Of a stretch of 64,000 bases of DNA, positions 56,998 through 62,083 are shown in pieces; the stretch's first letter is position 1, and each line of letters starts with the position of its first letter. The DNA is taken from NCBI GenBank assembly GCA_965219085.1, contig OZ244720.1, positions 1,024,001 to 1,088,000 on the forward strand, written 5' to 3'. The notes below the pieces were generated by a model that was not told the DNA's origin, did not search any database, and worked only from the letters and a program-made list of their open reading frames with translations. The DNA is from Dehalococcoidia bacterium (GTDB lineage Bacteria > Chloroflexota > Dehalococcoidia > UBA2979). The position numbers and the translations under genes were made by a program.

Positions 56998-57243
56998 ATG
57001 AGAAAGCGTCTCGAAGTCCTCGTCGATGACGGTGAATACAGTGCGATCCGCGAGGCTTCTTGGAAGCAGCGGCTGACCGTGTCCGAATGGGTGCGTCGCG
57101 CTTTGCGACAGGCGCTGGCCGGCGAAGCTGATGCGGTCGAGACGAAGCTGGCCGCGATCGCCAACGCGTCGCGGCACGGTTTCCCGACGGCGGATATCGA
57201 GGTCATGCTCGACGAGATCGAGCGAGGGCGAGCCCTCCGCTAA
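56998..57243 (+). CDS. Orphan RHH antitoxin (no cognate toxin downstream)
   Basis: MRKRLEVLVDD..TVSEWVRRALR..FPTADIEVMLDEIERG. Confidence 0.65.
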   Translation: MRKRLEVLVDDGEYSAIREASWKQRLTVSEWVRRALRQALAGEADAVETKLAAIANASRHGFPTADIEVMLDEIERGRALR

Positions 57244-57472
57244 GCTAAGCCCGCATCCACCGATCGAAGCTTGACGGGGCGGGATGCCGGGCTACCCGAG
57301 AGTTCGGCGGGCGTGCCGGCGTTCGCCGGGCAGTGCCGGGGGCGGGCCGGAGCGAGGAGCCGTCGCTCAGCGCCGCTCGGGGGCGCTGAGGGCGCGGGCG
57401 CGAGGGTGCGCGAGGCGTGCGCGGGCATGCTGGCGCGAGGCTCGGACCCGGGGCCGGCGCTGTGAGCGGGCG

Positions 57473-57858
57473 TCAGGCCGGGAGCGGTATCGCCCGTAGT
57501 CGCGCGAGCGCGGCTGCCAGCTGCCCGGCCCAGGGCCAGCGCTTCGGGAGGTGCAGGGTCCAGCGCCGGGCGGAGTGGGTGAGCCGTCCGGCGAGAGCGA
57601 AGTAGCGCCGCCTGAGCGTCCTGGTCGTGACGATTCCCTCGCCGAGCCCCAGCCGCGCCGTCCAGCGGGCGAGGTTGTGCGCGATCACCTGCACCGCGAG
57701 CCACGCCGCGTTCGCGGCGAAGCGGCCCGAGGGGAGATGATTGAGCCCGACGCCGTACTTGAGGTCACGGATCGCGTTCTCGATCTCGGCGTGACGGCGA
57801 TGGTCGGCCTCGAGCTCCATCATCTCCCCCGGCGCGGTCGGTGATGGAGGCGTGGTAG
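57473..57858 (-). pseudogene. IS1380 transposase C-terminal fragment
   Basis: Continues ..TYS|YHASITDRAG..EMMELEADHRRHAEIEN after removal of the nested IS, with an extra G near 57826-57830. Confidence 0.85.
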
Positions 57859-57950
57859 ACCGTATGGAGTGACCGGCTCCGAGTTCGCAAACTCGCGGGT
57901 TACAGACGCGAGGCCACAGAGCCGCATACGAAAGGGAGCCGGTCAGGAAC

Positions 57951-58898
57951 ATGACTACCACATACGCAGGGATGGATGCACACGCCGCGACGATCCGGGT
58001 AGCGGTGCTGGCGCCGGGGGCCGAGCGGCCCGAGGAGTGGCAGCTGACGAACGAGCGGCGGTCGGTGAAGCGGCTCGCGCAACGCCTGAAGCGCATGGCG
58101 CCGGGGCCGGTCGTGGCCTGCTACGAGGCGGGGCCGGGGGGCTTCGCGCTACAGCGCCAGCTCGAGGCCGAAGGCATCGAATGCCGGGTGATCGCGCCGG
58201 CGCTGATCCCGATGCGGCCCGGCGACCGCGTCAAGACCGACCGCCGCGACGCCAGGAAGCCGGCGGAGCTGCTGCGCGCGGACCTGCTCACGGCGGTGCA
58301 TCCCCCGACCATCGACCAGGAGGCGGTGCGCGACCTCTGCCGGGCGCGCGAGGACGCCGTGACCGACCGCACGCGGGCGCGCCACCGCCTGGCGAAGCTG
58401 CTGCTGCGGCGCGGCATCGCCTACGACGGGCGGAACTGGACGCTGCGGCACCGCCGCTGGCTGCTGACGCTGCGCTTCGAACACCGGGCCGCGCAGGCCA
58501 CCTTCGACGACTACCTGCGCGCGCTCGAGGGCGTGGAGGAGCGGCTGCGCACGCTGGAGCAGGAACTGGCCGCGTGTGCCGCCAGCGACGACTACCGCGA
58601 GGCGGTGGGGCTGCTGCGCTGCTTCCGCGGGGTCGACACGGTGACGGCGATGACGGTGGGGGCAGCGCTGCGCAAGCGCCGCGAGGGCCAGCCGGGCTGG
58701 GCCGTGGTGCTGGCCGACCGCGCGCAGGCCCGGCTCTATCGCCGCCACCGGCGGCTGGCCGCTCACGGCAAGCCGTCGGTCGTGGCGAACACTGCCGTCG
58801 CCCGTGAACTCGCGGGCTACCTGTGGGCGGTGCTGCGGCGTATCCCCGCATCCGCGGGCGGGCCGAAGGTCGGCGCCCGGGAGCAGGCGGCGGCCTGA
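57951..58898 (+). pseudogene. IS110/IS1111 recombinase with an in-frame internal deletion of the Tnp20 domain
   Basis: GMDAH, CYEAG and KTDRRDA DEDD motifs are present. The sequence jumps from GVDTVTAMTV to GAALRKRREGQP and lacks the catalytic-serine (SSG) segment. Confidence 0.8.
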
Positions 58899-59115
58899 TA
58901 CCACGCGCCCGGTCCGTGGCGAGGGCGGAGACGGCGGTACGCCGTTCCGGAGCAGGAGAGGATGGATGAGCGAGGGCAGGCTCAGGAGGATGCGCGGTAC
59001 AGCTATGCGGCAGCGGCGCCCAGCGCCGTCAACCCGCGACGCTAGACGGCGACCCCTCCCGGCGAAGCACGGTCATGCGGCAAGGCCCGAGGCAACCCGA
59101 CGTTCCTATAGAGAG

Positions 59116-60375
59116 TCAAGGGAGCGATCCGGCAGCCTCCTGCGCGGCGTGAGCGGCGAGGCGATTCGGGACAGAGGGATGCCCCGCTTCCAACCCCGCC
59201 CGCGCTGATCCGGGATCCGTGGATGCCCGTGTTGGCTGCCGTGGGTGCTCGCCGTCCACAGACGCGGGGGGCCCGCCCTCACAGGCGCGGGGGGCGCCGG
59301 GAGTCGAGCCGGGCGACAGCTGCGTGGCGTATCGCGCCAGATCGGCAGTGAGCGTTCGATAGAGCTGGCGAGCGACATAGCGCTTCAGGCAGCGGATGAT
59401 CTCGCGTTTGGACTTACCCTCCGCAGTGCGCTTCGCCACGTAAGCTCTGGTGCGGGCGCAATAGCGCAGGCGGACGAGCACGATCCGGTACAGCGCGCTG
59501 TTGGCCTGCCGGTCGCCGCCCGGGTTCAGGCGATGTCGCTGCGTGCGCCCGGAGGACGCCTCGAGGGGCGCGGCGCCGCAGAGCCGTGCGAAGGCGGCCT
59601 CGCTCGACAGCCGTCCGATGTTCTCGCCGGGGGTGACGAGTAACTGCGCGGCGTTCACGATGCCGACACCGGGCAGTGCGAGGGAGCCGGGTGCGACCCT
59701 CTCCACAAGTGACCGCAGCGCCTGGTCGAGATCGGCGACCTCGCGGTCCAGCTCGGCGACGTGGTGAGCGACGCTGCGCAGCGCGAGCTTCGCGGCCTGT
59801 AGTGGTTGGTCGAGCCGGGCCCTGTCCGGACGGAATCGCGCGCACTGCCGCGCCTTCGCGGGCAGGGTCTGCTGCGGCAGCGCCTCGCGGAGTTCCGCCG
59901 GCGCCGTGGCGATCAGGTCGCGCAGCTGCAGCAGCGCCGCACTGCGGGCCTTGACCGCGGCTGAACGAGCATTTGCGAGGGTGCGGATCGACTCGACGAC
60001 ACCGTTCGTGGCCTTGGGCAGCACCTGCGCCGTACCCGCCAGCACCTGCCTCGCGGCGGCCTCGGCGTCGATCGGGTCTGACTTACCCTGGCGCCGGCGC
60101 GTGTGCCGGTGCGGCTGGCTGACCTCGCGCACATCCAGCCCCTGTGCGAGCAACCAGCGTGTGAGCCCGGCCCCGTAGGACGAGGCGCCCTCCACGGCGA
60201 TCGTCGCGATCGTGCCGAACGCCTCCAGCCACTGGTGCAACTCCCGGTAGCCCCGCGCGGTCGCTGGGAACTCGGCATCCCCGAGTCTCTCTCCTCGATC
60301 GTCGAGTGCGACTGCGTGGTGCGTGCGGGAGTGGGTATCCACCCCTCCGATGACACCGCTCCGCGTTTCCGGCAT
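59116..60375 (-). CDS. IS110-family recombinase (transposase)
   Basis: GGVDTH, VEGASSYG, KSDPIDA, EASSGR (catalytic Ser), HRLNPGGDRQANSAL and CLKRYVAR. Confidence 0.93.
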   Translation of the reverse strand: MPETRSGVIGGVDTHSRTHHAVALDDRGERLGDAEFPATARGYRELHQWLEAFGTIATIAVEGASSYGAGLTRWLLAQGLDVREVSQPHRHTRRRQGKSDPIDAEAAARQVLAGTAQVLPKATNGVVESIRTLANARSAAVKARSAALLQLRDLIATAPAELREALPQQTLPAKARQCARFRPDRARLDQPLQAAKLALRSVAHHVAELDREVADLDQALRSLVERVAPGSLALPGVGIVNAAQLLVTPGENIGRLSSEAAFARLCGAAPLEASSGRTQRHRLNPGGDRQANSALYRIVLVRLRYCARTRAYVAKRTAEGKSKREIIRCLKRYVARQLYRTLTADLARYATQLSPGSTPGAPRACEGGPPASVDGEHPRQPTRASTDPGSARAGLEAGHPSVPNRLAAHAAQEAAGSLP

Positions 60376-60399
60376 GCTCGCCGTACCTTCCTGCGGGGA

Positions 60400-60590
60400 G
60401 GTGTGTGACCGGGTCGTGGTGGGCGGACAGAACAGCGATGAGGCAACTCTGAGCCAGGTTCCTATGAGGTCACGCCACCCGCGGCCCGGTCACTTGGTGG
60501 ATGCGAGGAGGGCGGAGCCGACACGTCGGATTGAGGACACCGCTCGCGGTGGGTCAGCGAATATCTAGGTCAGGCTCCGTCCTTCTCGCT
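60400..60590 (-). ncRNA. Putative bridge RNA of the inner IS110 (target-binding and donor-binding loops)
   Basis: Stems at 60573-60579/60513-60519 and 60485-60493/60405-60413 enclose guide segments that match the target flanks and the element ends. Confidence 0.75.
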
Positions 60591-60724
60591 GTGAGTATCT
60601 TCGCTGCGAATATCAGAGTGACACGTCGTCGAAGCAGCGCCCTCGTTCGTCCATCTCCCCCCGTTCCGGAGCCGGATCGCCACGACCACCGCCGGTGCTG
60701 CTTGACAGCCGGTCACTCCATATC

Positions 60725-61486
60725 AGCTGTACGTCGCGAAGAGCGCGAGCTGTGAGCCGGGCGTCGGCTTCACGCGCCGCACGATGAGCCGCACCGCGCT
60801 GGCGTCCGCCATGTGCTGGAACGGCGTGTACGTCGTCTCGGCGACAGCGGCGCCGCCCGGCAGCCAGTACGGGATCGGCGTCCAGTCCGCTTCCGGTATC
60901 GCCTCGATCAGCGTGCGTACGTTCGGCTGCTGGCGAATCGTGACCGAGAAGCGGACGTCCTGCTTGCGGCAGGCGGCGACGACCCCGTGGTTGTAGAAGC
61001 CGCTGTCGGCTCGCATCGTGAGCTGCCCGCTCGCCCCGGCGTCGCGGACCCGCGCCACCGTCTCACGCAGGAAGTGGGCGGCGCCGCGCCGGGTCCCGCT
61101 CCGGCCGCCCATGCGCGGGCGAGCAATGCGCGGCTGAGGCGGTCGAGCTGGCGGACGTGGCCCCAGCGGAAGCTGCGCAGGAAGGTCCCGAGGGTGGACG
61201 GCGCCTTCACGGTGCAGCCGAGCACGCGCCCGGCGCCGCCGGCGCGCATCGCATCGGCGTCGTCGATGCAGTCGCCGCCGGCGAGCGCCGAGGCGACCAG
61301 GGTCAGCAGCTTGTCGCCGGCGTTCGCCCGCCCCGGCGCGTCACCGAGGTCGAGATAGCGCTCGGCAAGATCGGGGAGACCGAGACGACCGGCGAGCGTG
61401 GCGGGGAGCAGCAGGCCCGCGTGGTCCACGAGGCGGTCGTCGTCGAAGGCGATGTCTATCCGGTCGGGGTCGCTCGTTGGTAGCAT
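60725..61486 (-). pseudogene. IS1380 transposase N-terminal and middle fragments, with internal deletion and frameshift near 61090
   Basis: FDDDRLVDHAGL, APSTLGTFLRSF, then in another frame GAAHFLRE..RADSGFY..RLIVRR. Confidence 0.85.
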
Positions 61487-61627
61487 CGAATGGTTGCTCC
61501 CTGTGGCTCGGACGTGATTCGTACAAAACCATTGTCCCAGCTACAGCGAAGCACCCAACCTCAGCCGCTCGCGCGCCCTCCGCTAAGCTAAGGGACGCCC
61601 CCGGCAGCACGTCGGTAGGAACGTCCT

Positions 61628-62083
61628 CTACGCGTCCTCGATAATCCAGCGGTCCGTGTCGCGCTGCCAGCTCGGCAGCGGCTCATCACCGAAGAACAGC
61701 GCGATCTCGCGCTCCGCGCTCTCCGGCCCGTCCGAGCCATGCACCAGGTTGCGCCCCACATCGAGGCCGAGGTCGCCGCGGATCGTGCCGGGCGCGGCCT
61801 CCGTCGGGCGTGTCGCCCCCATCGTCTGGCGCGCGGCGGCGATCGCATCGGGGCCCTCGAGCACGGCCGCCACCAGCGGGCTCGACGTGATGTAGTCGAC
61901 GAGCCCGGCGAAGAACGGCTTCCCGTCGTGCTCCGCGTAGTGCCGGCGCGCGAGCGCTTCGTCGACGTGCACGAGCCGCAGCCCGACGATGCGCAGGCCG
62001 CGCGCTTCGAGGCGCCCCAGCACCTCTCCGATGAGTCCTCGTTGCACGGCGTCGGGCTTGACCAGGATCAGCGTGCGCTCCAC
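61628..62083 (-). CDS. ndk: Nucleoside diphosphate kinase
   Basis: [26 protein letters not shown] and NLVHGSD. Confidence 0.97.

Follow-up and report, generated by a model that had tools for sequence, protein, structure and literature searches.

The stretch of DNA analysed here, referred to as the window, comprises 64,000 nucleotides of a Dehalococcoidia bacterium (contig OZ244720.1, positions 1,024,001 to 1,088,000), whose genome is represented by a single contig of 3.31 Mb with 69.8% G+C. At window positions 57240-61580 three insertion sequences are found nested in one another: an IS1380-family element contains an IS1111-group element (denoted here as the outer or host element), which in turn contains an IS110-group element (the inner element). 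Bridge and seek RNAs, the guide RNAs of such elements, were first described in 2024. The comparisons presented below make it very probable, at the level of sequence, that the inner element is an apparently active bridge-recombinase element of the IS110 group, targeting the donor module of a related element's bridge-RNA gene.

The inner insertion sequence occupies positions 59100..60606 on the minus strand, as delimited by empty paralogous sites, by a second copy in the same genome (99.87% identical) and by a joint in sequencing data that skips 1507 bases. Its length is 1506-1507 bp, the boundary being ambiguous by one nucleotide because a single base, G on the plus strand and C on the element strand, is all that the two junctions have in common. 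Removal of 59100-60606, which the original prediction (made from the letters of the window alone) had expected to restore the target, indeed yields GGCAACCCGCGAATATCAG, and the same sequence is present uninterrupted, as GGCAACCCGCGAATATCAGAGTGAC, in two paralogs of the outer element in the same genome, B (756326-757875) and C (3084443-3085992). The joint from 59098 to 60606, skipping 1507 bases, was found in contigs of all four sequencing runs (4/4); as evidence of excision it was ruled out by the empty paralogs of the same genome. The comparison of empty and occupied sites shows that the insertion is scarless, with neither a target-site duplication nor a 2-nt duplicated core.

The recombinase gene of the inner element (59116..60375, minus strand) is intact and encodes 419 residues. 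The protein matches PF01548 (1.3e-21, residues 11-155, the N-terminal RuvC-like DEDD domain), PF02371 (3.2e-15, the C-terminal Tnp domain) and the NF033542 model "IS110 family RNA-guided transposase" (158.2 bits, compared with a cutoff of 140). Its translation contains the motifs GGVDTH, VEGAS and KSDPIDAEA (DEDD), as well as G..P....SG, and we take D13, E62, D100 and D103 to be the DEDD catalytic residues, an assignment made from the motifs and not from a structural alignment. In the C-terminal part, weak matches to the ISCro4 and IS621 chains were obtained (E 5e-4 for IS621), and the stretch CGAAPLEASSG aligns with the ESGS of the ISCro4 chain; the serine motif G..P....SG of the Tnp domain is described in the available text of PMC11187229. 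The non-coding DNA of the element is distributed very unevenly, with 231 nt on the 5' side of the gene vs 16 nt on the 3' side. A candidate promoter formed at the junction of a circular form (TTGACT from the right end, GAAGAT or GATACT from the left end) was discarded, since its spacing of 18-21 nt is poor, and no claim is made for it. A sharp spike in depth at 59366-59439, flanked on either side by loose ends, was seen in all DNA runs and in one RNA run; in those samples the stretch apparently occurs in contigs with other flanks as well, which are presumed to be other IS110-family elements that have a conserved C-terminal stretch of the recombinase in common.

The bridge RNA of the inner element and its guides

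The predicted bridge RNA of the inner element extends approximately over 60401..60595 on the minus strand, as judged by its fold and by covariation in 26 relatives, and contains a target loop followed by a donor loop. In the target loop, the left guide GAUAUUCGC (60557..60565, minus strand) is identical to the left flank on the element strand plus the shared C, the plus-strand letters gcgaatatc occurring both there and at 60606-60614. The right target guide CAAUCCGAC (60525..60533, minus strand, within which cggattg falls) pairs through eight Watson-Crick pairs and one G.U pair with GTCGGGTTG, a sequence composed of the last two nucleotides of the element, the shared C and six nucleotides of the flank. 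The 3' AC of this guide pairs with the donor GT and not with the target CG; pairing of the guide 3' end with donor bases characterizes the handshake guides of IS621, according to the available text of PMC11208158. In the donor loop, the left guide AUAGGAAC (60458..60465, minus strand) equals right-end positions 59102-59109, with gttcctat on the plus strand at both places, while the right guide UCGCUG (60433..60438, minus strand; cagcga on the plus strand) pairs with the left end CAGCGA at 60601-60606, where the complementary tcgctg closes the element. The positions of these four segments, and their matches to ends and flanks, had been given in the original prediction and were found to be correct on re-reading of the window; for the right target guide, which had been described as the 7-nt CAATCCG, position and match stood and the length had to be corrected to 9 nt.

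The probability of such matches arising by chance was gauged by shuffling the 219-nt interior of the inner non-coding region 20,000 times with dinucleotides preserved. The left-target 9-mer appeared in 2 of the 20,000 shuffles, the left-donor 8-mer in 16 and the right-donor 6-mer in 1477, whereas the right-target 9-mer appeared in 534 when at most one wobble was allowed and in 5181 when wobbles were unlimited. At least three of the four guide matches were never found together (0/20,000). In the minimum-energy fold of the region (-92.1 kcal/mol, z -2.18, 5 of 200 shuffles being as good), the guides fall into two internal loops.

Further evidence is provided by the relatives of the element. A protein search at the level of the class, with matches in only 5 of 301 genomes, brought up no close relatives of use, and the nearest relatives outside three related genomes are actinobacterial elements with 46-56% amino acid identity (among the best 80 of 199 confirmed loci), whose 5' regions align with that of the window. 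From an alignment of 26 sequences, RNAalifold derived 25 pairs: the target loop is closed by a long stem and contains a short helix, and the stem that closes the donor loop has a hairpin within it. In this alignment 93.1% of the cells are paired and 15 of the 25 pairs display compensatory changes; the covariation score was 0.428, compared with 0.176 in shuffles (0/500 as high) and with at most 0.123 when the partners were slid by 1-3 columns, although scoring a consensus structure on the very alignment from which it is derived favours it.

The four guide positions also track the elements' own flanks and ends. The 5' side of the first loop corresponds to the left flank plus the first base of the element (ACCACTGAC, GCGACTGAC, CTTGATGAC and CCGTAAGAC in relatives, GATATTCGC in the window), and its 3' side, in the relatives, to the complement of the last three bases of the element plus the right flank. 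The 5' side of the second loop corresponds to the right end (ATAGGAGC; CTAGGAGC in the relative L110; ATAGGAAC in the window), and its 3' side to the complement of the left end, as in the pairs CAGAGAT/ATCTCTG, CAGTGAT/ATCACTG and AAACGGTAAT/ATTACCGTTT, and in CAGCGA/TCGCTG of the window. When a longest common substring of at least 7 nt was scored in self and non-self pairs, the left guide matched the left flank in 25 of 46 self pairs and 152 of 2070 non-self pairs, the right guide matched the right flank in 10 of 34 and 6 of 1122, and the right donor guide matched the left end in 22 of 46 and 196 of 2070, the non-self values being inflated because similar targets are common to many relatives. 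The IS621-type arrangement of target and donor loops, proposed from the window alone, is therefore upheld by structural covariation, with two guide-bearing loops, and the expectation that guides would covary with targets across homologs was borne out for target and donor guides alike.

Another group of relatives was observed in genome G029 (L116-L120), where five elements of about 1.33 kb, approximately 69% identical to the inner element in nucleotides and with ends, are found. Their left donor guide and right end covary (ATAGGAGC), and a 28-nt sequence, GTCTGAGATCTGACAGGGATGATCGGTA, precedes four of the five copies; no match between their target loop and their flanks was found, the stretch to the left of the element being this conserved 28-nt one, and they were excluded from the counts.

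Two metatranscriptome libraries from separate studies gave contigs spanning 60403-60595 and 60400-60579, with no more than one difference; both end at 60400/60403, where DNA contigs continue. These contigs can be considered a weak hint of the inner bridge RNA, as they carry no information on strand, ends or level and such libraries may hold DNA. Other contigs of the same libraries contain the uninterrupted host region, with 59003-59098 joined to 60606-60674 or to 60606-60731. The RNA-library contigs (X16, X18) left 59440-60400 of the recombinase gene nearly empty, which was not taken as differential expression, a gap in contig cover being no evidence; nor were the small word shares of the RNA runs (0.04-0.09) taken to point to a habitat.

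The outer element and the target in its donor module

The outer IS1111-group element spans 57859..60724 on the plus strand, as defined by its inverted repeats, its core dinucleotide and its paralogs. The 16-bp subterminal inverted repeats (TATGGAGTGACCGGCT) lie 4 nt inside the left end and, as the complement, 2 nt inside the right end, and the core AG is found at both junctions (57857-57858 and 60725-60726). Of its recombinase, the window holds a remnant of 315 residues (57951..58898, plus strand), with a 186-bp deletion relative to the paralogs and without PF02371; since the recombinase of paralog B has both PF01548 and PF02371 (and reaches 256.3 bits with NF033542), the assignment to the IS1111 group holds. 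Judging by this deletion, the host copy in the window is defective regardless of the insert.

Ten uninterrupted non-coding regions of the host family yielded a consensus fold of about 185 nt, which comprises a closing stem as well as two homologous modules, each with the order right guide, UGCGG, hairpin, CAAC, CCGCG, A and left guide. The decoding of this RNA into two modules is our own reading, suggested by covariation. In the window, the predicted 5' part of 140 nt (58960..59099, plus strand) comprises the closing stem, the target module and the right guide of the donor module, and the 3' part of 45 nt (60607..60651, plus strand), severed by the inner element, comprises the left donor guide and the 3' strand of the closing stem.

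Module 1 is read as the target module, its guides being assigned from the fold and from covariation with the flanks (58996-59004 for the right guide and 59040-59045 for the left guide, plus strand). Its right guide complements AG together with the right flank: GGTACAGCT accompanies AG-CTGTAC in the window and in genomes G004 and G013, TACACCT accompanies AG-GTGTA in copies B and C, and CTCACCCT accompanies AG-GGTGAG in G015. In the window, GGTACAGCT is the reverse complement of AG+CTGTACC, and the right flank matches AG+CTGTAC. The left guide, located 3' of the right one and reading CGCTAG in the window, ends in the core AG, and the bases before it show a partial match to the left flank. Among 48 distinct metagenome relatives, matches of at least 7 nt between the right guide and the right flank, sought in the expected interval of 80 nt, were found in 24 of 48 self pairs and in 61 of 2242 non-self pairs.

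Module 2, in turn, is read as the donor module, and its two guides covary with the ends of the element. The right guide (ACGGTC in the window, 59069-59074, plus strand) tracks the left end, in the combinations ACCGT/ACGGTC, ACAGT/ACTGTC and ACCCT/AGGGTC, and the left guide (ATATCAG in the window, 60610-60616, plus strand) tracks the right end, in the combinations CCATATC-AG/ATATCAG, CCATACA-AG/ATACAAG and CCATATG-AG/ATATGAG. The suggestion, made in the original prediction, that the targeted sequence overlaps the probable donor guide of the outer element is supported by these observations, given that atatcag is the left donor guide and that three classes of right end and three of left end match the guide classes.

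A related arrangement was noticed in an IS1111-group relative with about 60% amino acid identity (L140, genome G032), and also in L147 and L153, where two bridge-RNA units stand in tandem (2693-2877 and 3074-3258 in L140). The flanks (CCCAG | GTCCCG) are matched by the target guides of unit 1, and the right end by ATATGAG, the left donor guide of unit 2; the left donor guide of unit 1 (CTATCAG) and the left target guide of unit 2 (ATATCAG) fit neither. The tandem units may represent a naturally "split" system, with one loop coming from each unit.

The target of the inner element can be written as CAACCCG^CGAATATC, on the strand opposite to the inner element, and the reconstructed target DNA as CAACCCGCGAATATC. 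It spans the loop residues CAAC, the 3' strand CCGCG of the module-2 stem, the A that follows and five bases of the left donor guide; the cut position lies inside the stem strand. One half-site, caacccg (59093..59099), belongs to the scaffold of the outer donor module, and the other, cgaatatcag (60607..60616), contains the 3' strand of the module-2 stem, the ATATC of the left donor guide and the core AG. The scaffold CAACCCGCGA is also present in module 1 (59030-39), where it is followed by a different guide that the left target guide of the inner element does not match. After insertion, the right (59069-74) and left (60610-16) donor guides of the outer element are located 1.5 kb apart, on opposite sides of the inner element.

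The exact empty-site 23-mer, CAACCCGCGAATATCAGAGTGAC, was found in 63 metagenome contigs. An IS110-family recombinase lies upstream on the same strand in 59 of the 60 contigs with at least 600 nt upstream, most of these proteins having 40-60% amino acid identity to that of the window host, and the right-end motif CC[AG]TATCAG is present in 45 of 52 contigs that extend 140 nt or more downstream. This context, maintained across divergent hosts, indicates that the target is an invariant feature of a broad IS1111 subfamily, and by these searches the target is shown to exist only in the 3' bridge-RNA gene of one IS1111-group subfamily. In a host relative from genome G022 (locus L130), DNA read by eye as an IS3-like OrfA starts 3-4 nt from the position of the inner insertion, directly following GGTACCCCGCGTA of module 2; the donor module would here have been interrupted a second time, by an unrelated insert.

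Insertions at the same site and their interpretation

Among 61 related genomes, the occupied left-end junction was found nine times: twice in G000 (the genome of the window), four times in G015 and three times in G022. All nine left-end-bearing copies are joined to CGA(A/G)TATCAG in the same orientation, in seven distinct host contexts, the left junction ggcaacccg| is present in all six full-length copies, and no left-end-bearing copy was found at any other site in these 61 genomes. The empty 17-mer occurs 26 times in six of the 61 genomes (G000 2, G004 11, G011 1, G013 6, G015 5, G032 1). A lone 151-bp fragment of the inner bridge-RNA region, 93% identical and without ends, was observed outside any host element in L028 (3001-3151, G018).

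The inner copies are far more alike than the hosts that carry them, with 98.3-100% overall identity vs 70-82% for the abutting host sequence on the left. The four G015 copies are 100% identical to one another; for their hosts, identity amounts to 70-76% in the left 400 nt and to 68-71% in the right 117 nt. The two copies in G000 (E, in the window, and D) are 99.87% identical and their hosts 79.5% identical on the left. The presence of near-identical inner copies in diverged hosts implies that insertion is much younger than the divergence of the hosts, and that the insertions are recent and independent, independent insertions at one site being a check proposed with the original prediction; at least three insertions took place in G015 alone.

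Two cases call for separate treatment. Copy D (G000 3172954-3175985; L124, L151) is chimeric: its left part corresponds to a variant with 91% amino acid identity, in which the flanks are not matched by the module-1 guides and the left junction reads CG instead of AG, while identity to the window copy reaches 100% in its right 117 nt and 99.5% in the IS1380 flank next to them, which suggests recombination between copies. The G015 composites L021 and L022 (1098-4164), both of 3067 bp, differ at one position and lie at different loci with different flanks, and the same host variant also occurs without the insert, in a third copy (L219 1998-3557, G015); the composite was either mobilised as a unit or generated by two inner insertions.

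By analogy with IS621, the inner element would be excised as a circle with the junction ATAGGAACGT-C-AGCGAAG. The donor loop of the 5' bridge RNA (AUAGGAAC and UCGCUG) would hold this junction, the target loop (GAUAUUCGC and CAAUCCGAC) would hold CAACCCG^CGAATATC, with the opposite strand being read, and the recombinase would exchange strands at the single shared C. An occupied host copy could then presumably no longer make its own bridge RNA, and it would depend on an intact copy acting in trans. In mechanism, the inner element does not stand out from the rest of the IS110 family; what is unusual is its natural target. The most economical explanation for the choice of site is that it is invariant, present in multiple copies and harmless to the cell. 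The harm to the host element is, as we infer it, a consequence, whether or not it is a selected function. That the element is "aimed" at a competitor stays an inference of the original prediction, and the site may instead serve as a conserved landing pad, present in multiple copies and neutral for the host. As the left target guide GAUAUUCGC is complementary to the host bridge RNA segment GCGAAUAUC, RNA-RNA interference between the two systems would also be conceivable.

Several observations speak against the interpretation as an active bridge-recombinase element with this target, or restrict it. The number of independent insertions is at least five and not nine, since copy D is chimeric and L021 and L022 possibly derive from one event. 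The left-end 26-mer of the inner element had no match in the metagenome collection scanned (which has no bearing on its rarity beyond that collection), so that the evidence on the inner element comes from three related genomes and the sequencing runs. The right target guide requires a G.U wobble, and the G022 copies adjoin CGAGTATC, with a 1-nt mismatch to the guide. Donor and target have one nucleotide in common, where IS621 has a core of 2 nt, and the left donor guide ends 3 nt before the junction, for which reason the exact cleavage register is not fixed. On the side of the host, the L021-type element has the left end ACCCT and yet the guide ACGGTC, and L139 has the right end CAACAAG with the guide TATACAAG, that is, one mismatch in the left guide. 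The RNA-library contig X16 bears a 65-nt unrelated loose end at 60595. Finally, recombination, the circle junction and the transcript ends have not been directly observed, and contigs cannot show a circle junction.

Other explanations must be weighed against the same data. It might be argued that the guide matches are coincidental and that the 5' region is not a bridge RNA, and the lack of any match to Rfam covariance models at E<=1 on both strands of 57000-62000 and the modest z score of the single-sequence fold could be invoked in its favour; the shuffles, the covarying structure and the family-wide covariation of guides with flanks refute this notion at the level of sequence analysis, and we consider it extremely improbable. 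An alternative that we regard as very improbable, if less so, is that of one ancestral insertion spread by descent, homologous recombination or composite transposition, without any RNA-guided choice of site. Recombination does occur, as the right side of copy D demonstrates, and near-identical composites exist (L021 and L022), but the contrast in identity between inner copies and abutting hosts, the presence of host differences to within 10 nt of the junction and a guide-site match far beyond chance are difficult to reconcile with it. Somewhat less improbable, though still a poor candidate, is an inner element that is an inert relic, multiplying only via its hosts or by rearrangement: all three G022 copies are truncated, G018 retains only the 151-bp fragment, and a circle junction was not seen in the contigs. 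Against it stand the intact open reading frame with its catalytic motifs, the intact bridge RNA and the existence of 100%-identical copies in three host variants of one genome.

A different question is whether the inner element is a dedicated antagonist or hitch-hiker, its site having been selected for crippling the host in cis, with the composite remaining mobilisable in trans. In that case the element would have two ways of spreading, its own insertion and carriage by its host, and hosts would escape through a joint change of donor guide and right end. The insertion splits the outer donor module, and the distribution of the G015 composites, together with the empty third copy, would fit; in addition, the ATATCAG-type sites of G022 are all occupied (3/3, none empty), and in L139 and L146, host relatives from G022, both the guide and the right end read ATACAAG, to which the inner target loop has no match. 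The same data, however, fit a neutral landing pad, L021 and L022 could just as well have arisen from two insertions, the inner element being 100% identical in both, and G004 and G013 have 11 and 6 empty sites without any inner element, so that both parts of this proposal, the antagonism and the accompanying escape of hosts, are judged unlikely. Its strongest version, in which the inner element would be an obligate parasite of one IS1111 subfamily in a guide-RNA arms race, with destruction of the donor module in cis, spread by trans-mobilised composites and selection for reprogrammed hosts (the ATACAAG and ATATGAG lineages being escape variants), appears unlikely too, if anything slightly more so. 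The preferred reading is still that of an apparently active, RNA-guided element with an unusual natural target.

The outermost level of the nest is the IS1380-family DDE element, whose 3' part (57243..57858) and 5' part (60725..61579) lie on the minus strand and were recognized from domain and family matches (a PF13701 match and a partial NF033539 match) and from empty paralogs. It is split by the outer element at GGCGTGGT-AG-CTGTA, and eight uninterrupted IS1380 paralogs in the same genome read GGCGTGGTAGCTGTA. Outer-type elements inserted at the same position of IS1380-family elements were observed at no fewer than seven loci in four genomes, which besides the window include L136, L149 and L155 (G004), L144 and L150 (G013) and L141 (G012). 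The IS1111-group host is itself an insertion sequence that targets an insertion sequence, its position in the IS1380 element fitting its module-1 guides, and the window thus represents a three-level nest.

Comparison with known systems

Bridge RNAs of IS110- and IS1111-group elements, located at the 5' or 3' end, are described in the available text of two reports (PMC11208160, PMC11187229), and the notion that IS110-family elements target other mobile elements is already published. The literature searches made brought up no case in which the guide-RNA region of one IS110-family element is targeted by another, although the supplementary target tables of 2024 may hold one, and the available part of a 2026 preprint on expanded IS110 loci makes no mention of "nested" or IS1111. 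The biological meaning of the natural targets of bridge and seek RNAs is, to our knowledge, little known. In this three-level nest, the natural programming of one RNA-guided recombinase system would be directed at another's guide-RNA gene, and the locus offers a natural test case for the need of a bridge RNA in cis vs its action in trans, for the mobilisation of a disabled element by its relatives and for the co-evolution of donor guides and ends. It also provides two bridge-RNA architectures supported by covariation, from high-GC uncultured bacteria and with their guide positions given, namely an IS110-proper clade with a single shared nucleotide and a two-module IS1111 clade with an invariant 23-mer, both of which are useful for annotation and for the choice of new orthologues.

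The outer element resembles the IS1111 seekRNA elements in its 3' non-coding region and subterminal inverted repeats, as far as these are described in the available text (PMC11187229, PMC11208160), and in having the guide that pairs with the top strand 5' of the one that pairs with the bottom strand, an order given there for ISEc11, ISPa11 and ISKpn4 (PMC11187229). Like the ISKpn4-type elements of the IS1111 group, it occupies a fixed position in another mobile element, in this case of the IS1380 family. IS4321 and IS5075 reportedly insert in the inverted repeats of Tn21. ISKpn4 and its relatives insert in attC sites, according to the part of the source available (PMC11187229). The targets of ISKpn4 and of IS4321/IS5075, to the extent that the sources at hand describe them, are protein-recognition or folded recombination sites, and not guide-RNA genes.

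The inner element is comparable to IS621 and the IS110 group in its DEDD and serine recombinase, its 5' RNA with a target and a donor loop and its scarless insertion, as these features appear in the available text of PMC11208160 and PMC11208158. As in that account of IS621, its left guides have top-strand sense, its right guides are complementary, and its right target guide pairs with the donor at the 3' end. With 419 residues, its recombinase falls in the long IS110-proper size class of 395-455 residues, as given in the text at hand (PMC11187229), compared with about 326 for IS621. The similarity to IS621 is otherwise weak and limited to the C-terminal part, and one shared nucleotide takes the place of the CT core. 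The closest parallel in the choice of target is ISEc21, an IS110-family element that inserts at codons around the DDE's second D in transposase genes of the IS3 family, in the available description (PMC11187229): both are RNA-guided, and both have as natural target a conserved, constrained stretch of another insertion sequence. The target of ISEc21, as described there, is protein-coding DNA of an unrelated DDE family, whereas that of the inner element is a non-coding guide-RNA gene of the same superfamily; it is also in this respect, the guide-RNA gene of another element as natural target, that the inner element differs from IS621.

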